A model generated the notes under the pieces. It saw nothing but the letters and a program-made list of their open reading frames with translations, searched no databases and was not told the DNA's origin. The translations under genes and the position numbers were made by a program. A DNA stretch of 64,000 bases from a virus: positions 10,204 to 74,203 of the IMG/VR virus record IMGVR_UViG_3300022777_000031. The stretch is one strand, 5' to 3'. Positions 2,316 through 58,600 of the stretch are shown here, piece by piece; within the stretch, counting starts at the first letter, position 1; every line of letters starts with the position of its first letter.

Positions 2316-2566
2316 TGGATCTTTTGATGAACCACGAGAAAGAATACATCACGAAAAGAAACGGCACCGAAACGTTTGTCACAAAACCTCACGAAACCGA
2401 TGCCAGAGTCTTTGAGGTTGGCGGCATCGGAAATGAGTCAAGTGTGAACGAAAAGTTTGTTTGGGGCGGCTACGAGGCCGCGGTTGACAGCGCGAAAAAG
2501 TATTTGGTTGAGCCGGTGCCGGATCCGATGGCCGATAAGGGGCGTTGGCGCCTCACGTGGATGTGA
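2315..2566 (+). CDS. Hypothetical protein, LxxHExxY family
   Basis: N-terminus LLMNHEKEYITKR; coupled to the thg1 stop. Confidence 0.6.
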   Translation: MDLLMNHEKEYITKRNGTETFVTKPHETDARVFEVGGIGNESSVNEKFVWGGYEAAVDSAKKYLVEPVPDPMADKGRWRLTWM

Positions 2567-2599
2567 CGCCTGCTCGTCGCTCTGCTTCGCTTTCTTATA

Positions 2600-2703
2600 C
2601 TTATAACTGCGTGATACGGCACGCATTTCGTTCGAGATTTCGAAAAGAACCTGCTTCGGCGGTGCCGTATCATCGTCGCAAGTGGGTTCTTTTTTTATGA
2701 CAC
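2600..2703 (+). promoter_or_regulatory. Structured leader A of a GIY-YIG gene (interlocked P1 helix plus terminator)
   Basis: TATAAC box, then TGATACGGCAC 2612-2622 / GTGCCGTATCA 2662-2672, and AAAAGAACCTGCTT 2643-2656 / AAGTGGGTTCTTTT 2680-2693 followed by a T tract. Confidence 0.7.
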
Positions 2704-2711
2704 AAGTTCTG

Positions 2712-3398
2712 ATGTCAGATAATAGATTTTACCTATACGGCCTATTTTACGAGAATGATCAAAATGAGAGTATATGTTTCTATATCGGAAAGGGAATCGG
2801 GTATAGAATAGATGAACATTTTACGTCTCCGAGAAAAGGAAACAACACATATAAGGATAACAAAATAGAAAAGTTAAAAAACAAAGGAAAAACACCCTTT
2901 GGAGTAAAGCTAGTTGAAAATCTTACTAACAAAGAAGCCTTACATTTAGAACAGAAAATACTTCGCAGAGATAAAGTGTTTTCTGAAGTAACGAACCTTA
3001 CAAGAGGGGGAGAAGGTTTAGCTGGATACAAACACAGTGAAGAAACAAAGCTTCAGATGAGTAAAAGTAGAAGTGGAGAAGATCATCACTTCTATGGAAA
3101 AGAAAGATCTGCAGACTTCAAGGAAAAACTTTCAGAAACGATGAAGGGAAAGAGAACCGAAGAAAATCACCCTTTATGGAATGAAGAAGTTAGTGAAGAA
3201 AGAAGGAACAAAATATCGGAAAATGCGAGTGGTGAGCAAAACGGAAACTCCAACCTGTCTCGTATTGAAGCTAAACAAATAAAAAACCTAGCGAAGGAAG
3301 GTAAAAAAACTCAAAAGAAAATAGCTCGCGAGTTTGGTATTAGTCCTTCGCATGTAAGCGACATCAAGCGAGGGCGCAGGTGGTCGTGCCTTGAGTAG
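2712..3398 (+). CDS. Free-standing GIY-YIG (LEM-3-like) homing endonuclease with NUMOD3 repeats and C-terminal HTH
   Basis: FYLYGLFY..CFYIGKGIGYRIDEH, E..LHLEQ..TNLTRGGEG, GYKHSEETKLQMS; AT-rich; alternative start 2697. Confidence 0.85.
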   Translation: MSDNRFYLYGLFYENDQNESICFYIGKGIGYRIDEHFTSPRKGNNTYKDNKIEKLKNKGKTPFGVKLVENLTNKEALHLEQKILRRDKVFSEVTNLTRGGEGLAGYKHSEETKLQMSKSRSGEDHHFYGKERSADFKEKLSETMKGKRTEENHPLWNEEVSEERRNKISENASGEQNGNSNLSRIEAKQIKNLAKEGKKTQKKIAREFGISPSHVSDIKRGRRWSCLE

Positions 3399-3418
3399 CT
3401 ATCGCTACTCATTTCGTT

Positions 3419-4240
3419 TCATTGCTTACGAGACTTGTACTTCAGCCCAACGTCAAGCCGGTCGGTAAGCTGAACGACGACGCACCCCCGATCAAGGGAA
3501 AGGTAAGTGCGGTAGGCGTCTTCGGGAAAGGCTGACTGAATGGGATCGGTTTGCTGAATCCCCGGAAACTCGAATTTTCGTTTCTCCCGTTCAAGCAGTC
3601 CTTCTTCCATTGCCGCATGTTTCCAGCGGTGAATCGTCGCTTTGCTTCGATCAAACCGACCTGCGAGAAATGAAACGCTCAAATCATTTGGCGAATGCGT
3701 TTCTCCGTGTCCTGGCTTATAGAAATGCCGAGCACTGCCCGTTGATGTGTGCGTCGCATTTTTTCGCACTAAGGCAAACTGGCGATTCGCTATGATTTTC
3801 CCAACAGAGACGGAGAAAAGCACCGCTTTCATTTTGCGTTTCGACTCCACGCAGAACGGCACTCCGATTTGATGAACAGTTGAAGACTCGACGCCCACTT
3901 GGTTCAGAAGGTAAGAGAAGGATCGCACGTAAAGGCGATCTCCATCTGTCCCGAGCCAACCGAGTTCAAACAGTCTTCGGATCTTCCGCTCGGCGGTCCG
4001 GCGAGTCTTCCAACCGCACAACCCACGGAGGCTGTCCTTCAAGTCGGGCGTTACCTCAAAATATGCGCCGTTGCCGTCGGCCACGCACTTGAGAGCAAGC
4101 AAGACTCGAAACTCGTCTGCAAGCCCTTGGCGCAGCACTTCTTCGGCCAGGCGGGTGTTTATGTTGAGGTAGCGGTTGTTCATTGCGCTTTTTATATAGC
4201 CACCGGATACCCCAAAATATGCCCGCCTGGCCGATTTCAT
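3419..4240 (-). CDS. Putative HTH DNA-binding protein (possibly replication-related)
   Basis: 273-aa basic ORF; HTH-like LSVSFLAGRFDRSKATIHRWKHAAMEEGLL. Confidence 0.55.
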   Translation of the reverse strand: MKSARRAYFGVSGGYIKSAMNNRYLNINTRLAEEVLRQGLADEFRVLLALKCVADGNGAYFEVTPDLKDSLRGLCGWKTRRTAERKIRRLFELGWLGTDGDRLYVRSFSYLLNQVGVESSTVHQIGVPFCVESKRKMKAVLFSVSVGKIIANRQFALVRKNATHTSTGSARHFYKPGHGETHSPNDLSVSFLAGRFDRSKATIHRWKHAAMEEGLLEREKRKFEFPGIQQTDPIQSAFPEDAYRTYLSLDRGCVVVQLTDRLDVGLKYKSRKQ

Positions 4241-4355: not shown

Positions 4356-4940
4356 ATGATTTACGCTTTAGTCAAAGATGAGCCGAAGTATGTGGGACGA
4401 ACAACCCGCTATTTATCTGGACGACTTTCGCAATACAGATATAACGTTCGGAATAAACGAGTAAAAACGACTGCAGGACAATGGATGGAAACGTTTGAAG
4501 ATATGAGTGAAGTTGATATTGTTTTGCTTGAAGAAGATCCCGACGACGAATAGACAGCCGAGTTGTGGTGGATGGATTACCTTGAATACCTTGGTGCTGA
4601 CCTTGTAAATGAGTATAGACATAGGTTCGGAAACACAGTGGAAAAGTCAGATGGTTGGGATGTGCCCGAAGAGGCGAAACAGATGATGGGGGAGATTTCG
4701 GATAAAAAGGTTGCTGAAAATCACGACGTGAGTGATGCGACGGTGAATAGACATAGGAACAGACTGAACATCGATCCGGCTTATCAGCCCGCCAAAGGTT
4801 ATGATATTCCGAAAGGGTGTATTGAGCAGCTTGGGGAAGAAAAAGATGAAACGCTCGCCGAGCGATATGGCGTTGGGGTAAGACTTGTGAAACACCACCG
4901 ACAAAAAAGAGAGATCAGTTCCTTCAACAGTAGTTCATAG
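4356..4940 (+). pseudogene. GIY-YIG endonuclease with two C-terminal HTH repeats, split by an in-frame TAG (4551-4553)
   Basis: MIYAL..KYVGRTT..RLSQY and LLEEDPDDE*TAELWWMDYLEYLGADLVN read as one continuous GIY-YIG domain. Confidence 0.75.
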
Positions 4941-5200: not shown

Positions 5201-5235
5201 AAAAGGACGGCTGCTCGTCGGCGGCCGTCCTTTTC
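5200..5235. terminator. Bidirectional intrinsic terminator
   Basis: AAAAGGACGGC...GCCGTCCTTTT with A and T tracts, between convergent units. Confidence 0.75.
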
Positions 5236-5244
5236 GTGTTTGTG

Positions 5245-5469
5245 TCAGTTTTGGCGCTCCATGATGCGTTCGATGATTCCGGCCATAACGCTTTGCTGTT
5301 CGATGTCCTCGACCTCAAAGCCTTTGTTGATTTGGTCGCTGATTACCTTTTTCTGGCGAACGAGATCAAACATTTCCCGATCAATCGTGTCGTTGGCGAG
5401 CAGGAAGTAGACGTTCACCGAGTTCTCTTGCCCGAAGCGGTGAGTCCGGTCTTCGGCTTGCTCAATCTC
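5245..5469 (-). pseudogene. Orphaned second copy of the SNF2 helicase 3' end (74 codons plus TGA, no start)
   Basis: Translates EIEQAEDRTHRFGQENSVNVYFLLANDTIDREMFDLVRQKKVISDQINKGFEVEDIEQQSVMAGIIERIMERQN; 43/74 identical (hand count) to the last 75 aa of 6335-9136. Confidence 0.9.
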
Positions 5470-5470
5470 C

Positions 5471-6211
5471 CTATATCATTTTTTTAGTGATTTCATCCGG
5501 CGGTTTTGATTTTCCTTTTACTGACTTTCTTTCCTTTCTGTCTGCCAATCTATAACAATAGCTACGTGATATGCCATAAAGGTCTGCTATGTTTTTTACT
5601 AGCGTTTCGTTGTCGTATAGCCATCTGATTTCCTTTACGTCTTGGTCGGTTGTTTTTCTTGACCTTGTTTTTTTGTATATGGCTGACTTTTTTTCTTCAT
5701 AGTTTTCATACTTTTTACCTTCATACCACTCGGGTTTAGTTTTTCCATCAACGTGTTCCCATGTCTTTCTTTTGTGTATGTTTAACACTCCGTCTACTCC
5801 ATATTTTTCTTGAAGCGATTTTGATTTCATATCCGAGTGTTCAACCAACCATCGTATTTCTCTTACGTCTTTTCTATTCAACTTGCTTAGATGTTGATTT
5901 TCACCTTTGGCTACAGTTCTTTTTTCGTCTTCCATAATCTGGTTAGTAAGATTTTCTATACCGATTTCTTTTATAAGCTTTGTTTCTTTTCTTATGGCTT
6001 CGGATTCGGTAAGGTTTGTGATTATTTTTTTGGCGTAAGGTTGTTTACCGTTTCTTCGGAGTTTTTTGATTTTTCTTCTCTTATGTGTGTTTTCTACTTC
6101 TTGTCTTTCATATTTGTATAGGTGTTCGTTAAGCCTATATTTTGTTCCTTTTCCTATATAAAAACATATTTCATTTCCGTAAAAAAGTCCATATACATAA
6201 TAATCATTCAT
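5471..6211 (-). CDS. Free-standing GIY-YIG (LEM-3-like) homing endonuclease with tandem HTH-like modules
   Basis: YYVYGLFY..CFYIGKGTKYRLNEH..ESEAIRKETKLI..LTN; paralog of 2712 and 29139; AT-rich. Confidence 0.85.
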   Translation of the reverse strand: MNDYYVYGLFYGNEICFYIGKGTKYRLNEHLYKYERQEVENTHKRRKIKKLRRNGKQPYAKKIITNLTESEAIRKETKLIKEIGIENLTNQIMEDEKRTVAKGENQHLSKLNRKDVREIRWLVEHSDMKSKSLQEKYGVDGVLNIHKRKTWEHVDGKTKPEWYEGKKYENYEEKKSAIYKKTRSRKTTDQDVKEIRWLYDNETLVKNIADLYGISRSYCYRLADRKERKSVKGKSKPPDEITKKMI

Positions 6212-6339
6212 TGGTCCGGTTTCAACCTAGAGTTCCAGTAAAAAAGCCTGCTTGCCGTAGCACCGGACCAGGGCGATTTAGCAAGCAGGCTCTTGTTGCG
6301 TTTCGTAAGTGATTTTTGGTCCGGTGTCACATCATTATA
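6212..6339 (-). promoter_or_regulatory. Structured leader B (promoter, P1 helix, terminator, anti-RBS)
   Basis: Minus strand: TATAAT 6339-6334; CACCGGACCA 6326-6317 / TGGTCCGGTG 6270-6261; AGCCTGCTTGC 6291-6281 / GCAAGCAGGCT 6255-6245 plus T tract; ACCGGACCA repeated directly before ATG 6211. Confidence 0.75.
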
Positions 6340-9136
6340 TATCATGTTTTTCCATGACTTTTTCTACGATTCCTGCTTCTATCGTTTTCTGTTCAACTTC
6401 TTCAGTGGAGATTCCTTTATTGACTACATCTGTAATCATCTTCTTTTTGTTGATTAGCTCCCACATCCATTCGTCTATTGTATCTTCAGCAAGTAGGAAG
6501 TATACGTTCACCGAGTCTTCTTGGCCTATTCTATGTGTTCTGTCTTCAGCTTGAACTGTTTCTGCCCAAGTCCAAGGGATCTCCACAAACGCAACATTGG
6601 AAGCTTCGGTTAAAGTAATTCCGACTCCACCAGCTTGAATGTTGAGCACAAGCAAGTCGTGTTCGCCGTTTTGAAACTCTTCAACGATCTCTCCACGACG
6701 GTCTGCATCCACGCTTCCTGTGATCTTTGGGCAACCGAACTCTTCTGCCAGCGCTTCGGTCGTGTCTGTGTAGTGGGCGAAAAGCAGTAGAGGCTCGCCG
6801 GATTCGGTGAAGTTGCGAATCCAGTTCTTCGCTTCTTTGTATTTTCCTTGACTTGTGACTTGCCGCAGCTCATTGATTTTTACGAGGTGTTCGGCGTTCA
6901 TGGCACGGCGTACCCTTGCCTCTGCGTGGCGCTCCATATGCGCTTCCTTGAGCGGCTCTGACAGGTGCTCAATTTGCTTCCGAAACTCGTCGTCGTTTTT
7001 GTATTTCTTCCGCAAGTGATCTGCCAAGTTTTCCTCCACGTCTTCATACTTGCTTCGGTTATCAATCTCAAGCTCGACGGTGGTGCGCTGCTTATCGGGA
7101 AGTTCATCAAGGATTTCGTCATCTTCTTTGTTTCGCCTTACGTAGCAGTTTCCCGTGAGCCGTTCGTGGAGTTCATCAAGATTTGAGGCTCCAGAGATGT
7201 CCCACCTTCCGAACTGAGACTCTTGGCGGTTGCAGTAGCGTTCTGTAAACTGCATCCATCCTCCAAACGTGTCTTTGAACACGCCCAAGATTTTGAGCTG
7301 ATTGATAATCTCGCTTGGCTGGTTGATGACAGGCGTTCCCGTAAGAAGAATACGGTAAGGGATGCCTTTGGAAATCTTCCGTACGGCTTTACTTCGCTTC
7401 GCAGAGTTGTTTTTGAGCTTGTGGCTTTCGTCGCAGATAATCGCGCCAAAGTCTTTCTCCTTGAACTTTTCTGTGAACTTGTAAACCAAAGAGTACGTGA
7501 CGATGTTCACGCTTCCACGAAAGTCCGTGTGGTTTCCACTTTTTATCGTTTTCACTGCACGGCGAGGGATCCACGTGTTCCACTCTTTTTCCCAGTGGCT
7601 TCGCACTGCAGCGGGAACCACGCAAAGCACAGGGTAGGCGTCAAGGTGCTGAACGGCGCCAATCGCTTCAACAGTGTTGTGCGTAACCACGTAGTCATCG
7701 GTTACGTAAAGACTGTCTCCCGCTTCAACAGATATGCATTGGGCTTCTTCGGTCCCGACTTTTTCTATGCTTTCTATCGTTCTGCACGGCGGTCCTTGTG
7801 GATCTTGAAGTTTCTCTTTTTTCCGATCAAGACGGAAGGGCTCCATATCAAGAGGAAGTTTTGCGTAAACCCTATGTCGGTCTTGACCTTTTTTCTTTTT
7901 GCCATTATAAGTGTATGTGGCTTCGCATGTATGCAAGCTTGCAGTTCCTCCGAGAGAACGAACCATTTCTTGAACGTCTTCGGAAAGCTCTTTTGAAGCA
8001 GAGCTGAAGGTTACGCCGCTTCCTTGAATAGAACCATCCGTGTCAAATAGTCCTTGAAGAACTGCGAGACGAACTTGTGGCGTTCCGTATTTGTATTTGT
8101 CGGGAACGAACTTGTGTTCGGAGTTTTTCAACAATCCCCCTTCACGAAGTGCAGATTGAACGATGTTTTCTTCGGTTCTTTCTCCGTAGGTCACATTATA
8201 GTCATATCCAGATGCGTGAGAAAGAGAAGTTTTTTCGGGTAGAGACGTTTCAAGTTCTTCAACAAGTTGTTCGTCCTGTGAAGAAAATCTAATGTGTTCT
8301 TTTCTCAATGAACCATCTCCGATAAGCAATCCGAGAGCATAGGGATCAATGTTGTACTCTTCGCTTCTATCAAACTTCACAGGTTCTTTAATGAGTGGAG
8401 CAAACCATTTCTTATTTTTGTTCTCTCCGTTGTAGCGAAGATCGCCGATCAGCTCTTCGGTGGTTTTGATTTTGTGGTATCCTCGGTTACGGCCATTGTT
8501 TGTTTGCACGTGCCAAAGGTGTTCTCCACAAGCACGGGTTTTTGCTCCGTGAGAAAATGTGATTTCGTATATTTCTTTTTCACCTTGAGGATATACGCCA
8601 GTGACCTTTGTTGGATTTCCGTCGCGACCGATCACTTTGTCACCGGGTTGTATGTCTCGCATTTTTTTCCAACCTTCCGGAGTGAGCACTTTTGCGTCAA
8701 GGGGTTGCGCTTTCCCCAGGCCCATTTCGTCACCGATAATGACCCGCTCGTTTTTCTCAATGTACTCGACGGCAGCCCGTTGGTACTCGCGAAGTTGCAT
8801 TCCTTTCGCTGTGCCGTATACACGGTCAAGGCTCGACTTTGCTCCGGTGGCGAGAGTCCGGTTGGTTTCTTCTCGCTTTCGCTCTTCCTCGAACTCTTCT
8901 CGAAGCTCTTTGATCATGTTCTCGATCTGGTCCGGCAAGGTATCGACGCCGAACTCGTTGCAGAAGCTCAGAAACTTCGCGGCGTTCTCGCGAGTATTGA
9001 GTGGGATATGCCAATCTTCCGAGTCCGGTTGGTAGTCTCTGCCGGGAATCTTCTTCACGGCGTTGACCTTATTCCAACTGAAGTCGTCGGAGAAGTTGAC
9101 TTTTACCCACTCTTTGTTGATACGTGAAAGTTCCAT
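6335..9136 (-). CDS. SNF2/SWI2-family (HARP-like) helicase containing an intein
   Basis: LREYQ, GDEMGLGK|T, DESH, LLTGTP and QAEDRTHRIGQ motifs. Confidence 0.92.
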   Translation of the reverse strand: MELSRINKEWVKVNFSDDFSWNKVNAVKKIPGRDYQPDSEDWHIPLNTRENAAKFLSFCNEFGVDTLPDQIENMIKELREEFEEERKREETNRTLATGAKSSLDRVYGTAKGMQLREYQRAAVEYIEKNERVIIGDEMGLGKAQPLDAKVLTPEGWKKMRDIQPGDKVIGRDGNPTKVTGVYPQGEKEIYEITFSHGAKTRACGEHLWHVQTNNGRNRGYHKIKTTEELIGDLRYNGENKNKKWFAPLIKEPVKFDRSEEYNIDPYALGLLIGDGSLRKEHIRFSSQDEQLVEELETSLPEKTSLSHASGYDYNVTYGERTEENIVQSALREGGLLKNSEHKFVPDKYKYGTPQVRLAVLQGLFDTDGSIQGSGVTFSSASKELSEDVQEMVRSLGGTASLHTCEATYTYNGKKKKGQDRHRVYAKLPLDMEPFRLDRKKEKLQDPQGPPCRTIESIEKVGTEEAQCISVEAGDSLYVTDDYVVTHNTVEAIGAVQHLDAYPVLCVVPAAVRSHWEKEWNTWIPRRAVKTIKSGNHTDFRGSVNIVTYSLVYKFTEKFKEKDFGAIICDESHKLKNNSAKRSKAVRKISKGIPYRILLTGTPVINQPSEIINQLKILGVFKDTFGGWMQFTERYCNRQESQFGRWDISGASNLDELHERLTGNCYVRRNKEDDEILDELPDKQRTTVELEIDNRSKYEDVEENLADHLRKKYKNDDEFRKQIEHLSEPLKEAHMERHAEARVRRAMNAEHLVKINELRQVTSQGKYKEAKNWIRNFTESGEPLLLFAHYTDTTEALAEEFGCPKITGSVDADRRGEIVEEFQNGEHDLLVLNIQAGGVGITLTEASNVAFVEIPWTWAETVQAEDRTHRIGQEDSVNVYFLLAEDTIDEWMWELINKKKMITDVVNKGISTEEVEQKTIEAGIVEKVMEKHDI
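7676..8710 (-). mobile_element. Class 3 intein (345 aa) with LAGLIDADG endonuclease, in the helicase Walker A motif
   Basis: GLGK|AQPLDAKVLTP...VVTHN|T; Ala1 plus W (EHLW), C (AQCISV), T (VTHN) triplet; LGLLIGDG and LQGLFDTDG motifs. Confidence 0.88.
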
Positions 9137-9233: not shown

Positions 9234-10562
9234 ATGGCTAAAAAGATTAAGTTCCCGAGAGGACCGTTCCTTGACCCGGACGTAGAAAATCCGCAGGAAC
9301 TGGACCGAGAGAAGATTGGCAAATCCGACCTGCTTCCTGTGAAGGGAAACACGCCGTTCGGCCGATACGATAACGACCCGAAGTTTCGGCGTCACGCCAA
9401 GAAGTTCACGATGTGGGCGGCACGCAGGCTTGGTTGGCCCGAAATGTCAATCGAGATCTCTGAGCACGACTTTTACGCAGCACTCGAAGAGGCAATCGAC
9501 GAGTTTAGCCGCCTTGTGGGAAATCAGAACATCGAAGACAACCTTGAAGCAATCCTTGGCTCTGACGCCGACAGAGACTTGACCGGCCGTTGGGTTTCTT
9601 CTGGCGGGGTTGGACAAAACGTTCAGCTTGCCAAAGACTACGGCTCGCCGGTTGCAGGAGGCGCAGGAGGAAACGTCAACTTTCATAAAGGCTTCATTGA
9701 CTTGGAGAACGGCCGTCAGATCTACGACAAAAGCGAAATCAAAACGTCAATCGAGACCTCGGAAGACGAATTCGACTTTGTTTCTCCAGACGAAGAGATT
9801 GTTGTGTATCGGGTGTTCCACGAAGACGTGCCGTCAAGCGTGTATGGGTATTACAGCGGCGCATACGGCGGGGGCGCAGGATATGGGGGAAGCCGTGGCA
9901 TCGGAATGAACAGCCATTTCAGCGGCTCAGGACAGGCAATCCAACGCTCTAAACAGTTTACGCTCAAGCCGCTTTATGACACGGTGCTTTCCATTCAGGA
10001 CTACGAGCTTCACGAAGATCTTTTCGAGAGCGATTACAGCTTCGAGATCATCGGGGACAAGATCAAGATTTTTCCAACTCCGCATCACGGCGGGTTCGGG
10101 GGGCACGGGCGAATGAGAGTGTGGGTTGAGTTTGTGTATGCAGACGAAGCGCTTGGAGTTGAAGTCATTGGAGACTCCACAGCGAGAGCAAGTGCTGATG
10201 AAAGTATTGACAATGTAATCAGCGACTACTCCGACGCGCCTTACGACTTCATTCCGTACCGCTTCATCAATGCTCCGGGTGAGGTGTGGATTATCAAATA
10301 CGGTTTGGAAGTCGCCCGCCACAAGCTGGGAACTGTTCGCTCAAAGTTCAGCGACACCCCAAGTCCACAGGATCCGTTTCAGCTTGACGGTGAAGACCTC
10401 AAGCAGGAAGCGCAAACCAATATGGAAACGCTCGTCGACAACCTGAACGAGCAACTTGACCAGCTCAGTAAGGAAGAGAGGCTTCGGCGCAAAGCCGAGA
10501 ACGCAGAAAACTTGAACAAGGTGCTTTCGAAGGTTCCAATGCTCATATACCGAGACAACTAA
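9234..10562 (+). CDS. Neck protein (T4 gp13-like)
   Basis: RRLGWPEMSIEI and KLGTVRSKFSDTPSP..LDGEDL patterns; first gene of the neck/tail block. Confidence 0.7.
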   Translation: MAKKIKFPRGPFLDPDVENPQELDREKIGKSDLLPVKGNTPFGRYDNDPKFRRHAKKFTMWAARRLGWPEMSIEISEHDFYAALEEAIDEFSRLVGNQNIEDNLEAILGSDADRDLTGRWVSSGGVGQNVQLAKDYGSPVAGGAGGNVNFHKGFIDLENGRQIYDKSEIKTSIETSEDEFDFVSPDEEIVVYRVFHEDVPSSVYGYYSGAYGGGAGYGGSRGIGMNSHFSGSGQAIQRSKQFTLKPLYDTVLSIQDYELHEDLFESDYSFEIIGDKIKIFPTPHHGGFGGHGRMRVWVEFVYADEALGVEVIGDSTARASADESIDNVISDYSDAPYDFIPYRFINAPGEVWIIKYGLEVARHKLGTVRSKFSDTPSPQDPFQLDGEDLKQEAQTNMETLVDNLNEQLDQLSKEERLRRKAENAENLNKVLSKVPMLIYRDN

Positions 10563-29020: not shown

Positions 29021-29138
29021 TATAATAACAGAGCGGTAGGACGCTTATAGAATTATTAACACCCTGTGTACCTATGCGCTCGTCCTACCGCTCTGGTACA
29101 CAGGGTTTTTATATTGAAGCAAACTAAATAGTAGGACG
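29021..29138 (+). promoter_or_regulatory. Structured leader C (promoter, P1 helix, terminator, anti-RBS)
   Basis: TATAAT 29021-29026; CAGAGCGGTAGGACG 29029-29043 / CGTCCTACCGCTCTG 29081-29095; ACCCTGTGTACC 29061-29072 / GGTACACAGGGT 29095-29106 plus T tract; GTAGGACG repeated at 29131-29138 before ATG. Confidence 0.8.
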
Positions 29139-29918
29139 ATGGGTAAATTTTATGTGTATGGACTTTTTTATGAAGATGAAAATGAAGAAAGCGTATGTTT
29201 TTATGTTGGAAGCGGAACTGGAAATAGGAAAGAACGACATTTTAGAGAAGGGGTAATGAAACACTGTACAAACTCATACAAAGTTAACAAAATAAAGAAG
29301 CTCCGTAGAAACGGTAAAAAATTATACGGTAAAAAACTGGTTGAAAATTTAGGTGAAGATAAAGCAAGAAAGTTAGAGCAAAAGCTACTTGATAGAGACG
29401 AAGTTTTTAATAACACCACAAACCTAAACAGAGCAGCAACTGGCTTTTCTGGAAAAAATCACCCGACTAACGGTGGAATGTCTGAAAGCCATAAAAAGGC
29501 TTTAAGTGAGTCTTTAACAGGAAGAACTCTTTCTAAAGAACATAAATTAGCACTATCTGAAGCGTTGAAGGGACACGAAGCTAGTGAAGAAGAGAAAGAA
29601 AGAATTAGGCAATCGCAACTTGGAGATAAAAACAACGCCAAAGACCCCGAAGTAAGAGAAAAAATAAGTGAAACTTTAAAAGGAGAAGATGTGGGAAGTG
29701 ACAACCCCCAAGCAAAATTTAATCGGAAACAGATAAAAGAAATACGGCGGCTATGGAACAACGAAAAATGGAAGCAGTATAACATAGCCGAAAAATATGA
29801 TTGTTCGCAACGGACGATAAGCAAAATTGTACGGAACATATCATATTGGGATGAAAATTATGAAAATAGGAGAGGAGAAACGATAACACACGACGAAATC
29901 AACGAGCGGCGGCGATAG
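29139..29918 (+). CDS. Free-standing GIY-YIG (LEM-3-like) homing endonuclease with NUMOD3 repeats
   Basis: FYVYGLFY..CFYVGSGTGNRKERH; MSESHKKALSESLTGRTLSKEHK; AT-rich. Confidence 0.85.
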   Translation: MGKFYVYGLFYEDENEESVCFYVGSGTGNRKERHFREGVMKHCTNSYKVNKIKKLRRNGKKLYGKKLVENLGEDKARKLEQKLLDRDEVFNNTTNLNRAATGFSGKNHPTNGGMSESHKKALSESLTGRTLSKEHKLALSEALKGHEASEEEKERIRQSQLGDKNNAKDPEVREKISETLKGEDVGSDNPQAKFNRKQIKEIRRLWNNEKWKQYNIAEKYDCSQRTISKIVRNISYWDENYENRRGETITHDEINERRR

Positions 29919-31833: not shown

Positions 31834-32066
31834 AACTCTTCGCGAAGCACGAAACGGACTTTATAACCAGGCAACTCGAAAACTCCGATCGGCAAACGTA
31901 TCACATCAACAGCAAAGATAAAGACAGGAAAGTATACGCGTTTTCTTCAATCCGAATGGGCTGTAAGGTTCCGGACGACGTAACGGAAGATGATTATTTG
32001 TTCGGACCGCAGAGAAAGTATCGCAACCACTCTACGGAGCGAAAATCTCACAACTGGGAGCTTTGA
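31830..32066 (+). CDS. Hypothetical protein, LxxHExxY/F family
   Basis: MKLFAKHETDFITRQ. Confidence 0.55.
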   Translation: MKLFAKHETDFITRQLENSDRQTYHINSKDKDRKVYAFSSIRMGCKVPDDVTEDDYLFGPQRKYRNHSTERKSHNWEL

Positions 32067-32107
32067 CAAATCTTCATATTCTTGTCGGAACGACTACGGA
32101 TTGTGCG

Positions 32108-32127
32108 CGTGTAAGCTTGTGCATTAT
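32108..32127 (+). promoter_or_regulatory. Early promoter motif, copy 2
   Basis: CGTGTAAG CTTG TGCATTAT. Confidence 0.75.
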
Positions 32128-32152
32128 CAGACGGACTCAAGCACAGATAATC

Positions 32153-32389
32153 ATGGACACGACCACAGACGGCTACGCAATCTTCATCGGAACCACACTT
32201 CATTACGTTTCCACTGCCAACAGCCGTGACGCCGCGTACTCCGAGTATGCGCAAGAGGTTGGCTTTGACCGAAGCGTATATCCAATGGGCCGCGACGACG
32301 TCGGCTTCCACTACATTCCCGCAACTGAAATGGACGAGTGGGAGGACGCAACCGCAAACGATTATCCAACAGTCAATCACCCGCTTTAA
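32153..32389 (+). CDS. Small acidic early protein (paralog of 34449)
   Basis: MDTTTDGYAIF..YVSTANSRDAAYSEYA..FHYIPATEMDEWED. Confidence 0.75.
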   Translation: MDTTTDGYAIFIGTTLHYVSTANSRDAAYSEYAQEVGFDRSVYPMGRDDVGFHYIPATEMDEWEDATANDYPTVNHPL

Positions 32390-32395
32390 CAAGCT

Positions 32396-32977
32396 ATGGG
32401 ACTCAAGTTCAACGGATACAAGGTAGCCAAAGAAGATCTTTGGGAAGCGGTCGATGAGATTCGCGACCTCTACTATGAGAAGCACGGGGCGACTGAGGCT
32501 GTACGTGAACTGGTCGAAACGTTTATCGAGAATCCGGAGGACTTTAACCACGACTCCGCAAATGTTCTCGAAAAGATGTCGGAGTTTGAAAACGTTTTCG
32601 CGAGTCGTGCGACACACCGGGAAGAATATAAGCGGGAAAAGCTCGCGCAACTTCAAGTCTACGACTTCGACGAAGACTCCTACGTGTTTCGCGTCATCGA
32701 GCCCGGATACTTCTTCGATAATGTCATTGCCGAACACTTGGGCGGGAACCACATGGGCGACCCGGGACTTCTCGATCCATTTTGGTACAGCGGAACGACG
32801 ATGGAAGGGCACGGAGAGCGCGCTAAAGAGCAAGTAGAGGAAGTCGCAGAGCTTCAAGAACAGAGGCGGTACTTTCTTATTTCCGTGCTTGAAGTCGACG
32901 ACATGTCGGACGTGTACTTTCAGGAGAAGAGGGAGGATCTCGCGAAAGCTAGAAAAAAGCATCGAAATGATGATTGA
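32396..32977 (+). CDS. Hypothetical protein
   Basis: 193-aa acidic ORF. Confidence 0.7.
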   Translation: MGLKFNGYKVAKEDLWEAVDEIRDLYYEKHGATEAVRELVETFIENPEDFNHDSANVLEKMSEFENVFASRATHREEYKREKLAQLQVYDFDEDSYVFRVIEPGYFFDNVIAEHLGGNHMGDPGLLDPFWYSGTTMEGHGERAKEQVEEVAELQEQRRYFLISVLEVDDMSDVYFQEKREDLAKARKKHRNDD

Positions 32978-33010
32978 CAAAGAACGACGCACATACATCA
33001 CACCAACGAT

Positions 33011-33460
33011 ATGAGCAAAAATAAGCACGACCATCTACGCGACCTCGAAGAAGAGATTGCCAGCAAGCGAAAGCAGCCGATTTACTCGGCTGAAGAAAAG
33101 AAGAAGTTGGAAGAAGCTGAGCGGCTTGTCGCCCGTGCCGCTGAAATCGCGGAGCAGTCCAAAATCGACGATGAAGACGGTCCTCTTCGGCTGTTTGAAG
33201 ACCAAGCCGCCGCTGAACTTCACGGCAATGACCTTGGACTAACGCTTACAGAGTTTGAGTTGCTTTCTTTGCTCAAAAAACAAAGCCCAAAGACGTTCAC
33301 CCGAAGACAACTTCTCGACAAAGTTTTTCAAGACGCGATGATGGTCACGGAGCGCACAGTGGACGCGCACATCAAAAACCTGAAAGAGAAGCTTGGGCGC
33401 TACAAAGACCGCATTCAAACTGTTCGTGGAGTTGGATACAGATACAGAAACGAAACATGA
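33011..33460 (+). CDS. Stand-alone OmpR/PhoB-type winged-helix DNA-binding domain protein (no receiver domain)
   Basis: LTLTEFELLSLL..TFTRRQLLDKVF..TERTVDAHIKNLKEKL..IQTVRGVGYR. Confidence 0.85.
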   Translation: MSKNKHDHLRDLEEEIASKRKQPIYSAEEKKKLEEAERLVARAAEIAEQSKIDDEDGPLRLFEDQAAAELHGNDLGLTLTEFELLSLLKKQSPKTFTRRQLLDKVFQDAMMVTERTVDAHIKNLKEKLGRYKDRIQTVRGVGYRYRNET

Positions 33461-33636
33461 TTATACCTCTTCTTTCAGGTATTGCTGTAGGACTCATTTT
33501 TACGGTTCTCGGCACATTGTTTTATGCCAGTGATGAAGACGGTCTTTACCCGTCAGAAAAAGAAGCAATTGTGTCTGGGCTGCAGGGAACTGCAATCGGT
33601 ACAGTTGTTCTTTTTCTGATTTTGTTGTTCTACTAA
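33457..33636 (+). CDS. Small membrane protein (59 aa)
   Basis: ATGA-coupled; two hydrophobic helices. Confidence 0.55.
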   Translation: MIIPLLSGIAVGLIFTVLGTLFYASDEDGLYPSEKEAIVSGLQGTAIGTVVLFLILLFY

Positions 33637-33640
33637 GTAT

Positions 33641-34114
33641 ATGAAAAAGGTTGAACAGACCAGCCGTTTTGATGGACCGTCCGAACAACCCGGAGACTGC
33701 ATGAGAGCGAGTTGGGCTTCGGTACTCGAAGTCGACATTGACGAGCTACCGAAGTGGCACACTGGAGATCCTTGGCTGACGTATTGGCGGAACTTTCACG
33801 TATTCATTCGGTTGAAAGGATACAAGATGAAGAAGTGGGAGAGGAGGCCGCCACTTGGGAAGGTTCCGTTTGACTCGTTTGTCGCGACCGGCCCGAGCCC
33901 ACGAGTTGACGGAGGAAGCCCGAAGCATTGTGTCGTATACGATTGGCACGGGTTTCAGTGGGACCCTTATCCCGGCGCAAAAGGACTTGACGCCGACCCC
34001 GACTTTTACGAATGGCTTGAGCACTGGGAACCGACATTTGAGCAAACCGATGAATGGAAATGGGGTGGGACACTTGGAAATGAACGCAGAGTTCCACCGA
34101 ACAAAATCATATGA
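33641..34114 (+). CDS. Hypothetical protein (GDC..A..AS..E / HCVVY motifs)
   Basis: 157 aa; possible Cys-His peptidase-like dyad, unverified. Confidence 0.65.
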   Translation: MKKVEQTSRFDGPSEQPGDCMRASWASVLEVDIDELPKWHTGDPWLTYWRNFHVFIRLKGYKMKKWERRPPLGKVPFDSFVATGPSPRVDGGSPKHCVVYDWHGFQWDPYPGAKGLDADPDFYEWLEHWEPTFEQTDEWKWGGTLGNERRVPPNKII

Positions 34115-34150
34115 TTTTGAATCAAATCTTCCACACTTTTACATACACGT

Positions 34151-34369
34151 ATGATTGAGTATATCGGATTATTCCTTGCAGGATTTGTTTTGATTGGAGG
34201 GTTCATATATCTTGGAGTAATGGCTAATCATTTTCAAAATAAATCAATGAGGCCGGGCGGAGGAATTTTCTTCATTGTTTATCTGTTCGCGAGTGCTTTT
34301 TTGTTTTTGGGAATAGAAGCACTTATCGTTTTAATCAACTACTTCACGGGATTCGCCGTGCTTTTGTGA
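34151..34369 (+). CDS. Small membrane protein
   Basis: Two transmembrane segments. Confidence 0.55.
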   Translation: MIEYIGLFLAGFVLIGGFIYLGVMANHFQNKSMRPGGGIFFIVYLFASAFLFLGIEALIVLINYFTGFAVLL

Positions 34370-34399
34370 ATTGAAGAAGAAACACCGGAATGTTGTGCC

Positions 34400-34419
34400 C
34401 GTGTAAGCTCTTGCATTAT
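34400..34419 (+). promoter_or_regulatory. Early promoter motif, copy 3
   Basis: CGTGTAAG CTCT TGCATTAT. Confidence 0.75.
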
Positions 34420-34448
34420 CAGACGAACCCAACCAACACATTACAACA

Positions 34449-34673
34449 ATGAACACGAACACAGACGGCTACGCAATTTTCGCCAATACCACACTCCAAT
34501 ATGTGTCAACGGCCAACACTCGCGATGGCGCATATGCCGAGTATGCGGAAGATGTTGGGTTTGATCGGAACATGTATCCGATGGATTCTGACAACGTGTT
34601 TTTTCACTATATTCCGGCGACCGAAATGGAAGAGTGGGAAGATGCTGACGCTTATAATCACCCAACAGTATAA
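34449..34673 (+). CDS. Small acidic early protein (paralog of 32153)
   Basis: MNTNTDGYAIF..YVSTANTRDGAYAEYA..FHYIPATEMEEWED. Confidence 0.75.
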   Translation: MNTNTDGYAIFANTTLQYVSTANTRDGAYAEYAEDVGFDRNMYPMDSDNVFFHYIPATEMEEWEDADAYNHPTV

Positions 34674-34684
34674 TATCGCAGTAA

Positions 34685-34798
34685 ATGATTGAAGTCGAGC
34701 AGACCAGCCTTCTCGACGGGCCAAAAGACCGCCCGGGAGATTGTATGTGCGCCGCTTGGGCATCGGTGCTTGAAGTCCAGTCGGAAGACTTGCTGTGA
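34685..34798 (+). pseudogene. Truncated paralog of 33641
   Basis: MIEVEQTSLLDGPKDRPGDCMCAAWASVLEVQSEDLL* versus MKKVEQTSRFDGPSEQPGDCMRASWASVLEVDIDEL. Confidence 0.75.
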
Positions 34799-34931
34799 AT
34801 GTGAAGTGCAGCGAATGCGGAGAGAAATACAACGTCATGCCGTTTGGGGACGGTACTCCGGTTGCTACGCCACTCACTCGAAGAGAGATTGTGAAACTTC
34901 TATAAAGACGGAAACAATGGTCCCACGCGCC

Positions 34932-55608: not shown

Positions 55609-58600
55609 GTGGCAAAAGATCAGGGACTTTATAGCGACCTGGACGAGTTCATCGAAGAGGGCGGTCGCCCCGAGGTGAACAAAGATGTCCGGCAGGAAGG
55701 CAACATCCCGACAGGAGAGCCGAAAGAAGGCTCAAACAAGTCGGGAAACATCCCGTCCACGGATCCTCAACCTGAAAGTCCTCAGCAGGCAGGTAATATC
55801 CCAACGGGGGATCCAGACAACGACTCGCCACAGCGGCGAGGAAACATTGACGGCGCAGATCCGCAGCCTGAAAGCCCACGGCGGCAAGGAAACATCGATC
55901 CACGAGAGCAGTCGACGCCCGAAAGTCCAGAGCGGCATCCGATTGACCCGAAAGAGAGCAGGTCGGACACGTCGGAAAGTCAAGGTATCCCTGTATCCGA
56001 CAACGCTCCGGAGCCGCCACAGCGGCGAGGAAACATCCAACCTTCACAGTTCAATCCAGAGGAAGGGAGAGTTGAGCGTGAAGCAAAAGACGACGCCCAA
56101 CCTGAAACCCCACGGCGAAAAGAAAACATTCGGCCGGACGCTTCAAATCGTCCAGAAAACCCAAACCGTGTTGAACGGCAGCCGCGAGAAGAAAACCAAC
56201 CTGAAAGCCCTGACCGTGGTTCTCGCGGACCACGTTCCGATGCAGCTCCACAAGAAGCAAACCAATCTTCACGAGAGGCTCGTGAGGACGCGGCGCCGCA
56301 GGAAGCAAACCAGTCTTCAAGGGAAGCTCGTGAAAACGCAGCACCCCAAGAGCCCGGACGCCGTGTTATCAATCTGAAGGAAGCGGCTCAGCCATCCGAT
56401 CCGACCCGCTCTGGCAACATTTCTCCAACGGAAGGTTCTGAACCACAAGAACCAAGGCAGCGAGGAAACATTCAGCCAACCGAAGAACCGCCAACCACAG
56501 AACCAACGGAGGGCACAGAGATTAGCGTAGGAACGGAGAACCGGCCGCCAGAGGCCGAACAGGAAGGGCGCATTCCAGCCGAAGACAGGCGGCCGCAAGA
56601 ACCTTCACGAGAAGGCATTGAACCAACCGAAGAGTCCGAGCCGCAGGCGCCACAGGAAACGGGAAACATCAATCCCGATGAAGACGTAACACCGCAAAGT
56701 CCGCAGGCAAGCGGCAACATTCCTCCAACTGAAGAGTCCGAGCCACAAGGGCCGAACCGATCGGGCAACATTTCTCCAACCGAGGAAAGCGAGCCGCAAG
56801 GCCCAAATCGTAGTGGGAATATAACTTCGAGTGATGAAGCGGCTCCACAAGGCGACTCGCAAGAGGGAAACATCACGCCACCGGAGGAACCGCAGCCGCA
56901 GTCGCCGCAAACAAGTGAGAACATAACGCCAACCGAAGAGAGCGAACCGGCGGCGCCGAATCGTTCTGAGAACATTTCCCCGACAGAGGAATCAGAGCCT
57001 CAACAGCCTTCTACAAGTGGGAACATCCCGCCGACAGAAGAAAGTGAGCCACAGGAGCCTTCCACGAGCGGCAATATCAGCCCTACCGAAGAGTCAGAGC
57101 CGCAGGGGCCGAACCGCAGTGAAAACATCACGCCGCCGGAAGAGCCACAACCACCGTTCCCGCAGTCGAGCGGAAACATTCCGCCGACAGAGGAAAGCGA
57201 ACCACAAGAGCCCGGCCGATCCAATAACATCCCACCTACGGAAGAAAGCGAGCCGCAGGCGCCGTCCACAAGCGGAAATATCAATCCACCTGAAGAGCCA
57301 CAACCACCAGAGGCTTCACAGGACGGGAATATCTCCCCAACCGAAGAGAGCGAGCCGCAAAGCCCGAGCCGTGAGGAAAACATCACGCCACCGGAGGAAC
57401 CGCAGCCACCTTCTCCGGACAGCGACGGCAGCATAAGCCCGACCGAAGAATCTGAACCGCAAGGTCCGCAAAGAGAGCGCAACATTTCGCCAACGGAAGA
57501 GAGCGAACCAGCGGAACCAAATCAAGACGGAGCGATTAGCCCGACAGAGGAATCCGAGCCTTCTGGGCCGCAAAGAGAGGGCAACATTCCACCGACCGAA
57601 GAATCCGAGCCACCGTCTCCGGATAGCGACGGATTCATTTCTCCAACTGAAGACAGCGAACCGCCAAAACCAGATCAGGACGGATTCATTTCTCCAACGG
57701 AGGAATCCGAGCCACAGGAGCCGGATCAAGATAGGTTCATTGAAGGAACCGAGGACTCAGAGCCACCAGAACCCGATCAGGACGGTTTTATCAGTCCGAC
57801 AGAGGGAAGTGAACCGCCAGAGCCGGACCAGGACGGGGCGATTGACCCGACCGAAGACTCAGAACCACAGGAACCGGACCAAGACGGGTTCATTTCTCCT
57901 ACCGAAGAGTCGGAGCCGCAAGAGCCGCAACGTGAAGGAAACATTGACCCGACAGATGGAGAAACTACAGACGGCATTGGCGGAGAGGACCCGAACAGAG
58001 AGCAGCCGCTGAAGTTTCAGCCTGCTCGATTTAGCAGTCAAATCGATCCCGAGAACACCGACTTCGTTGACACCGTTCCGGGAAGTGAGGACGGCGTTCC
58101 CGAGTGGCAACCGCCGCTTCGTTATCAATCACAGCGATTCGCCGGACAGATTCAGCAAGAGAACACAGACTTCGTTGATACCGTCGCTGGAAAAGGCGAT
58201 GGCGTTCCTGAATGGGAGCCGCCACTTCGACACCAACCACAACGCTTCGTCGAACAAATCCAGCAGGAAGGGCAGTTTGTTGAAGTCGTGGCGGGAAGCG
58301 AAGATGACACCCCCGAGTGGCTTACAACGCTGAAGCACCAGCCACAGCGGTTCGCAAACCAGATTGATCCGACGTCTCCACAGTTTACAGACGAAGTGGC
58401 CGCTGAGTTCGTTGGAGAAAACGACGGCGCGGCAGAGTGGGAAGTTCCACTTCGCCACCACCCGGAGCGATTCGCGAATCAGATTGACTCGCAAAGCGCT
58501 ACATTTCGAGACGGACTTGGAGAAACTTTTCCCGGCGAAGACGACGGCTCTGCAGAGTGGCAAGTCCCATTGAGGCACCACACGAAACGGTATGCTGACC

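Follow-up and report, generated by a model that had tools for sequence, protein, structure and literature searches.

The window analysed here, a 64,000-nucleotide (nt) stretch of viral DNA (positions 10,204 to 74,203 of record IMGVR_UViG_3300022777_000031), is part of an 86-kb IMG/VR viral record that carries phage structural genes. On its minus strand, a SNF2-family helicase gene (9136..6335) is followed by a 123-nt spacer, a GIY-YIG endonuclease gene (6211..5471), a single base, a start-less reading frame (5469..5245) and a terminator. The start-less frame resembles the C-terminus of the helicase, and comparison with related loci makes it very likely that the endonuclease is a free-standing homing enzyme whose gene moves together with a substitute 3' end of the gene it targets. 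The features of this putative cassette and its surroundings are as follows, in window coordinates.

6335..9136, minus strand: SNF2-family helicase coding sequence, an open reading frame (ORF) of 933 amino acids (aa) with its intein; the last 74 codons are the replacement tail
5470..6558, minus strand: predicted mobile cassette of 1089 nt, comprising replacement tail, leader and endonuclease gene; limits set by analogy with the related loci L020 and L026
6335..6558, minus strand: replacement (F-type) helicase tail with stop codon, AT-rich and recoded; recognised by its G+C content at third codon positions (GC3) and its similarity to the tails of other carriers
6212..6334, minus strand: conserved leader from the helicase stop to the endonuclease ATG, from an alignment of five distinct cassettes
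5471..6211, minus strand: free-standing GIY-YIG homing endonuclease gene, 246 aa, intact, assigned by Pfam; stop codon TAG at 5473-5471
5245..5469, minus strand: orphaned native (O-type) helicase tail, 74 codons plus TGA without a start codon; recognised by similarity to the helicase C-terminus and to native tails
5201..5234, no strand assigned: putative original intrinsic terminator of the helicase gene (hairpin and T-run), now behind the orphan; the same hairpin region follows the native tail in relatives

The helicase matches the Pfam families SNF2-rel_dom (9.6e-26) and Helicase_C (4.8e-16), and the endonuclease matches LEM-3_GIY-YIG (E 4.6e-13, 49.8 bits versus a cut-off of 27). Y5, Y7, G8, Y18, G20, R26, H30, E76 and N90, which form the GIY-YIG catalytic core, are invariant in an alignment of 13 endonuclease homologues. 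The nearest homologues are 73-82% identical, and every one of them lies directly after the same helicase. The orphan frame encodes 74 aa beginning EIEQAEDRTHRFGQ. An original prediction, made from the letters of the window, held that an endonuclease sits inside the helicase 3' end and has orphaned the native tail, and the Pfam-supported 246-aa enzyme at 6211..5471 with the orphan at 5469..5245 bears this out. It also put the likeness between orphan and helicase end at 43 of 74 residues, counted by hand; BLASTP finds 42 of 71 identical (59%, E 8e-34), so the likeness holds while the count shifts slightly. The orphan and the helicase tail were paired at E 1.8e-27 in a six-frame, all-against-all comparison of the window, and none of the other pairs listed by that comparison puts a gene-end copy beside an endonuclease gene.

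Related loci, referred to here by L numbers, were collected by protein-guided scans of IMG/VR and metagenome contigs together with a search for endonuclease homologues. A megablast of the region against GenBank phages gave no match, and tblastn against GenBank returned distant helicases of at most 47% identity; the best of these, LR756508, has neither an endonuclease nor a second tail adjoining its helicase. An exact 29-nt word of the orphan has no other match in IMG/VR.

The cassette breaks the helicase between PWT(W/F)AE (PWTWAE in the window) and IEQAEDR, two codons ahead of the Q in motif VI. The junctions are best seen in a pair of relatives, the carrier L020 and the cassette-free L026, that are about 97% identical on either side. 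L020 contains 1090 extra nt precisely between GGGCAGAAA and AGCAGGCTGAAG, and TCG is the sole loss. From the opening codons of the replacement tail, its insert extends to a point immediately beyond the endonuclease stop, and thus corresponds to exactly the tail, the leader and the endonuclease. The left junction was taken from this pair because identity profiles of the window against its relatives failed: all are about 80% identical at the nucleotide level and synonymous sites are saturated. By analogy, the cassette of the window is limited on the left after GCAGAAA (6565-6559) and on the right before GAGATTGAG (5469...). The functional tail had been placed at 6562-6335, which is correct, with the cassette proper beginning at 6558. 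Codons at the insertion point read GAR-ATY-GAR-CAR in cassette-free (naive) alleles versus GAR-ACN-(G/A)(T/C)T-CAA in carriers, amounting to 4-5 changes in six bases (naive ATYGAR, carrier ACNGTT or ACTACT).

This layout is not an assembly artefact. The window probably derives from sequencing run X1. A contig from a second run (X2), in which the phage including its cassette is at low depth, is identical over 5360-5937 and spans the endonuclease/orphan junction, and the same layout recurs in at least eight independent assemblies of relatives. The tail, leader and nuclease ORF take up all 1089 nt of the cassette, which has no integrase or recombinase gene. It holds stop codons and no Hint domain, and a search of Rfam with both strands returned no intron or other match at E up to 1. 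Nor are the two tail copies exact repeats like those of attachment (att) sites, their DNA being about 61% identical along the 213 nt of coding sequence that they share. These contents agree with the earlier proposal that the mobile unit consists of tail, leader and endonuclease and dispenses with integrase, intron and intein, as do the sharp junctions, the polymorphism among close relatives and the confinement of the F-type tail to loci with the endonuclease that are described below.

The two tails differ in codon usage, as had been noticed. GC3 is 0.70 in the orphan, with its preference for C- and G-ending codons, versus 0.35-0.38 in the AT-rich in-gene tail; the endonuclease has 0.30 and the body of the helicase about 0.6. 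Native tails of relatives have a GC3 of 0.51-0.69 and F-type tails of 0.23-0.35, the drop beginning at the junction in all carriers. The proposed use of GC3 as a junction marker works in the relatives and is blurred in the window, where GC3 is 0.42 across the 50 codons upstream of the junction, making these somewhat AT-richer too. The similarity of this 50-codon stretch to L017 is 0.87 versus 0.78 further upstream, and to the naive L026 it is 0.86 versus 0.81. The stretch is possibly a short co-conversion tract.

Cassette-free alleles had been expected to end like the orphan, and they do. The native tail of L027 is identical to the window orphan at 71 of 73 residues, and that of L044 differs from it at none of 70 codons in protein and at 31 of 210 nt, whereas both are 60-62% identical to the functional tail of the window. 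A single orphan-type tail is present in cassette-free L027, L044 and L026 and in about ten database proteins (P0038-P0048). In the three loci, this tail is followed by the same terminator region as the orphan of the window, whose predicted terminator was found as a hairpin and T-run at 5234-5201. The orphan of L020 is about 95% identical at the nucleotide level to the working tail of L026.

The F-type tail occurs on four backbones, in the window, L017/L028, L018, the L020 group (L019-L024, L045 and L046) and L025. The copy in the window shares 80-87% aa identity with the tails of the other carriers. This tail is found only with the endonuclease; the L025 contig ends within the tail, ahead of the place where an endonuclease would lie. 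A search restricted to the tail region returned no F-type tail without endonuclease, and none of the relatives lacking the endonuclease carries two tails, an arrangement that the original prediction had counted as contrary to its view. Among F-type tails, the nonsynonymous rate (dN) is 0.06-0.13 and its ratio to the synonymous rate (dN/dS) is 0.03-0.18 where dS is defined, indicating purifying selection on this tail. About 20 unique changes map to the branch of the window orphan, all of them net synonymous (probability about 1e-10 or less if neutral). The orphan of the window is therefore almost without pseudogene history, so that it was either orphaned recently or is continually renewed by homing into naive genomes.

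Carriers form a series from intact to decayed. Orphans are intact in the window and in the L020 group. L018 has a frameshift in its endonuclease gene and an orphan cut back to its last 9-10 codons (IERIMERHED and stop), which end like the native tail of its own clade (RHED, as in L044). In L017/L028, roughly 16 codons from the end of the orphan survive, about 400 nt downstream of the endonuclease. Since the orphan is mostly gone in L017 and L018, it appears to be dispensable. Such a series fits the usual homing cycle, in which degeneration follows invasion and fixation. A fusion of endonuclease and orphan by frameshifting or read-through was also considered and rejected; the orphan frame has a TGA directly behind an A-run, and the window and L020 do not agree in how the two frames are related.

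L029 is an independent second case of an endonuclease that carries a gene end. It encodes a different GIY-YIG enzyme (HEG2) that is 35% identical to the enzyme of the cassette (HEG1), with the same leader and N-terminal ~30 codons and with NUMOD3-type repeats in place of the C-terminal half of HEG1. The element is inserted 42 codons further into the tail and is preceded by its own copy of the displaced last 31 codons. A 31-codon orphan follows, and the 3' end of this orphan and the DNA downstream match the naive L026 better than the in-gene copy does.

The presence of the cassette is polymorphic at a single site, with L020, L045, L046 and L025 versus L026 in one group and L018 versus L027 and L044 in another. 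A maximum-likelihood tree built from 540 nt of the helicase body mixes carriers and naive loci in two strongly supported clades (L018/L027/L044, and the L020 group with L025, L026 and L029) and forces at least three changes of cassette state, be they gains or losses. L020 and L045 are mismatched at 2 of 1803 nt across the left flank and cassette versus 24 of 1292 nt from the orphan onward (Fisher p = 8e-8), and the first mismatch after the junction lies 25 nt into the orphan. This jump in divergence means that a near-identical cassette stands ahead of two different orphans. The orphan differences are mostly synonymous (dN/dS 0.10), as expected if each orphan served as a working tail until invasion. 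L025 matches the naive L026 without a difference over the last 235 nt ahead of the junction (~97.6% across 2.7 kb), and it matches L045 without a difference starting 58 nt ahead of the junction, which looks like a fresh invasion event. Over the 150 nt ahead of the junction, L018 departs from its own clade and approaches other carriers.

Several observations weigh against a mobile unit of endonuclease and gene end. The cassettes of the four main lineages are 76-84% identical at the nucleotide level and have diverged about as much as their backbones. No recent donor of the cassette in the window is present among the sampled loci, where synonymous sites are saturated. The naive allele of the window's own population, which would appear as a join of helicase body and orphan, was not seen in contigs, which is not evidence of its absence. 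Between the window and the L020 group, the position at which endonuclease meets orphan is offset by 9 nt, so a later indel or separate resolution events are needed. L025 is a metagenome contig of 3x coverage that ends in the tail, and its recombinant pattern could thus be an assembly chimera. Finally, the perfect conservation of the orphan at the protein level could reflect selection on the orphan itself. In view of the 76-84% identity, the most economical account is an old cassette family that homes repeatedly and strands a fresh native tail each time.

Selection on the orphan is the most open of the alternatives, because the protein sequence of the window orphan is perfectly preserved. In this case, the orphan would be no young scar and would be maintained as the right homology arm for homing or as an expressed peptide or RNA. 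Its frame is open in the window, where the protein is identical to that of L044 despite 31 nt changes, and also in the L020 group, where a 77-aa ORF is called. We nevertheless consider this unlikely. The window orphan has no start codon, its frame relative to the endonuclease stop is +1 in the window and -1 in L020, and in L017 and L018 most of it has been lost by deletion. In DTIDREMF, the R that almost every native tail keeps has become K or M in orphans of the L020 group. A homology arm would be selected for its match in DNA and not for the protein that it encodes.

It seems similarly improbable that a single ancient accident of illegitimate recombination brought in the endonuclease with the helicase end of its donor, followed by vertical descent, the tail being no part of any moving unit. 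Such an event would account for cassettes of the window, L017, L018 and L020 that differ about as their backbones do, and for a junction position that is the same within 9 nt in all carriers. However, naive genomes are nested within carrier clades, and the orphans and remnants all look like native tails from their own clades (the window with L044/L027, L020 with L026, and the RHED end of L018 with L044). A single event also sits poorly with the jump in L020/L045 divergence at the junction and with a window orphan free of nonsynonymous change. Nor would precise loss from L020-type DNA be able to restore the native tail, since L026 has ATCG that is absent from L020.

A local tandem duplication of the helicase 3' end, with divergence and later landing of the endonuclease between the copies, would fit copies that are equal in length and collinear. 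We regard it as very improbable, as the copies are 59% identical in protein and have opposite codon bias (GC3 0.35 vs 0.70), naive relatives that are 97% identical to carriers have one copy, and the F-type tail is always linked to the endonuclease and has the same base composition. That the cassette is a spliced intron or intein and the orphan the real working tail is scarcely credible, even if motif VI is an intein site in L005 15 nt from the insertion point, given the lack of an Rfam intron match on either strand, the stop codons and missing Hint domain, the purifying selection on the F-type tail, boundaries without one consistent reading frame across the window and L020, and the deletion of the orphan in L017/L018 with an intact helicase.

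We propose that the endonuclease and its accompanying gene end spread during mixed infection. The enzyme would cut cassette-free helicase alleles at or near WAE / IEQAEDR, close to motif VI. The break would be repaired from the carrier genome, with the helicase body as the left arm and the carrier's orphan tail and downstream DNA as the right arm, and the tail, leader and endonuclease would be copied in during the repair. Translation of the helicase would continue into the cassette's own tail and keep the protein functional, while the recipient's tail would be stranded behind the endonuclease as an untranslated orphan. The recoded tail, with its 4-5 changes in six bases at the insertion point and its different codon choice throughout, should be uncuttable. 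As the naive site is split in the orphan, the orphan would likewise be safe from cutting. After fixation, the orphan decays, and in at least one lineage so does the endonuclease gene. The leader between the two genes probably restrains expression of the endonuclease.

The leader has a mean column identity of 83% in the five distinct cassettes, above that of the flanking coding DNA. The helicase stop had been predicted to overlap a TATAAT motif, and TAA (6337-6335) indeed falls within TATAAT at 6339-6334. A scan for sigma-70 promoters yielded no excess of sites over shuffled sequence and passed over this TATAAT, and Rfam has no family for the leader. The following elements were recognised.

6330-6318, minus strand: element A, 13 nt, complementary to B
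6290-6281 pairing with 6255-6246, minus strand: terminator-like hairpin of 10 base pairs (bp), GC-rich and followed by a U-run
6269-6257, minus strand: element B in the hairpin loop, 13 nt, able to pair with A (13 bp) or C (8 bp)
6220-6213, minus strand: element C, 8 nt complementary to B, abutting the endonuclease ATG

The helices A:B and B:C and the hairpin are 98.5-100% paired in the five distinct sequences, with one compensatory change each. A shuffle control reached 41-46 of 500, which is weak given the few sequences. A base change in L020 that affects A, B and C is compensated in all three elements. Expression of T4 endonuclease genes is controlled by terminators and hairpins. The leader is probably a similar device that limits endonuclease expression, possibly as a switch between A:B and B:C pairing.

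The closest known counterparts are the mobile endonuclease ORFs (mORFs) of fungal mitochondria, in which a foreign C-terminus and an endonuclease ORF are inserted and the native C-terminus is displaced (PMC3630166). Cases include atp6 of Allomyces macrogynus (Paquin et al. 1994), atp6, atp9, cox2 and nad3 of Glomus, atp9 of Rhizopus oryzae and cox2 of Mortierella (PMC3630166). The native copies of mORFs are 91-98% identical to relatives and the inserted copies 64-81% (PMC3630166). The order is the same in the phage, with a host gene core, an in-frame foreign C-terminus, an endonuclease ORF and a displaced native C-terminus, and identity to relatives is 95-100% for the native copy versus about 60% for the inserted copy. 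In both systems, mobility is attributed to the endonuclease of the element. Unlike the mORFs, the cassette is found in a double-stranded DNA phage and not in a mitochondrial genome, targets motif VI of a SNF2 helicase, and has its endonuclease in an ORF of its own, preceded by a structured leader that includes a terminator-like hairpin. The phage set also offers a population series (naive, freshly invaded and decayed) and a second, retargeted enzyme. By analogy, the cassette would work like an mORF, outside the set known from fungal mitochondria.

Free-standing endonucleases of T4-type phages (seg, mob) spread by intronless homing, with double-strand-break repair and co-conversion of the flanks (PMC2988022). 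They resemble the cassette in placing a GIY-YIG enzyme outside any intron or intein and beside a conserved essential gene. However, the T4 cases are intergenic or split a gene, whereas the cassette lies within coding sequence and supplies the end of the gene. Duplicated or remnant gene ends are not mentioned in that review (PMC2988022). In Aeromonas phage Aeh1, as outlined in PMC3045599, insertion of mobE splits nrdA and the enzyme is rescued by coding sequence derived from the insertion. As outlined there, this too is a phage endonuclease inserted in an essential gene whose function is saved by insertion-derived sequence; the Aeh1 gene yields two polypeptides joined via new tails, in contrast to the helicase, which stays in one piece and discards its old end.

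Integrative elements restore the 3' end of the tRNA or tmRNA gene they target and leave a displaced partial copy, using an integrase and short identical att sites. Here, too, an incoming copy of the 3' end keeps the target intact and a displaced partial copy is left, but the cassette, at 1089 nt, has a nuclease as its only enzyme, and the protein encoded by its replacement end differs by 40%. A literature search of incomplete coverage returned no phage paper on a homing endonuclease that brings a replacement gene end, and such a paper may exist. The cassette may be viewed, again by analogy, as a phage representative, resolved in unusual detail, of an element type described from fungal mitochondria.

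A wider generalisation strikes us as plausible, if short of probable: phages may harbour a general class of gene-end-carrying homing cassettes, each combining a free-standing nuclease, a portable recoded gene end and a shared riboregulatory leader. These would be retargetable by exchange of the DNA-binding domain together with a matching new end, as would be suggested by HEG1, which sits at motif VI, and HEG2, which sits 42 codons further on in L029. If true, serial cassette replacement would explain why the last 74 residues of the helicase are at 55-60% identity versus 78-92% for the rest.

With junctions resolved to the nucleotide, the locus shows that a phage homing endonuclease can reside within an essential coding region, outside any intron or intein, if it brings along the gene end that it displaces. 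For phage genomics, this implies that genes may have foreign 3' ends, that small hypothetical ORFs behind nucleases are possible orphaned gene ends, and that such genes have mosaic phylogenies. For research on selfish elements, loci before invasion, soon after it and in decay form a natural time series with a retargeted sister element, making the homing cycle and the origin of immunity directly testable. The cassette would also connect phage biology with a phenomenon so far described for fungal mitochondria.

The C-terminal half of the endonuclease, in which Pfam calls no domain, contains two repeats of a (D)V(K/R)EIRWL...YG.S module. A PDB sequence search with the endonuclease gave a single marginal match to the helix-turn-helix of sigma-70 region 4 (E 0.28). 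The two repeats are probably a helix-turn-helix module.

The window encodes further GIY-YIG enzymes with a shared N-terminal domain at 2682-3398 and 29118-29915, both on the plus strand. The first has Pfam NUMOD3 and HTH_3 matches, and the second can be aligned with it across these repeats. The pair share 37% identity, and they are 43-45% identical to the N-terminus of the cassette enzyme. In type they resemble HEG2 of L029, and neither gene was found to have a duplicated gene end next to it. Two adjoining ORFs of 65 and 125 aa (4356-4940, plus strand) lie between the orphan terminator and a 273-aa gene. The 65-aa ORF starts like a GIY-YIG or T5orf172-type nuclease (IYALV...YVGRT) and the 125-aa ORF has helix-turn-helix-like repeats; neither has a Pfam match. 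This block is absent from L026, L027 and L020 and is thus probably another nuclease insertion that is split or decaying.

The helicase gene itself carries a separate mobile element, and a Thg1-like gene is found a few genes downstream of the helicase in relatives.

7676..8710, minus strand: LAGLIDADG intein of 345 aa in helicase motif I (GLGK / AQPL...VVTHN / TVEAIG)
L017:7217-8029, L018:7222-8010 and L046:5936-6724: Thg1-like gene (Pfam Thg1 and Thg1C; tRNA-His guanylyltransferase family) in relatives

The intein has a Pfam match to LAGLIDADG_3 (6.6e-15) and a sub-threshold match to Hint, and its limits were set by the intein-free relatives L003, L005 and L018. Its first residue is Ala (GLGK / AQPLD...), there is a Cys in a block-F-like stretch (AQCISVE), and it ends in VVTHN / T. 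This pattern resembles that of class 3 inteins, such as the Deinococcus Snf2 intein. The motif I intein is present in the window, L017 and L044 and absent from L018, L020, L026 and L003. In L005, a different position is occupied by an intein within motif VI (QAEDR / CILEG...SAVHN / CHRFGQ; L005:6114-7196), 15 nt from the cassette site. L029 (about 2735-3744) and L017 (about 2495-3510) have an intein at FTDRYC / ... / CDRK (RYC / (N/D)R). The helicase family is thus a hotspot with five different selfish insertions, counting the inteins and the two endonuclease cassettes.

Elsewhere in the window, diverged paralogous ORF fragments are clustered at 56475-58478 (minus strand) and 31994-34900 (both strands). 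Fragment pairs include 57003-57521 and 56475-56999 (56% over 160 aa) and 31994-32386 and 34407-34670 (72% over 74 aa).

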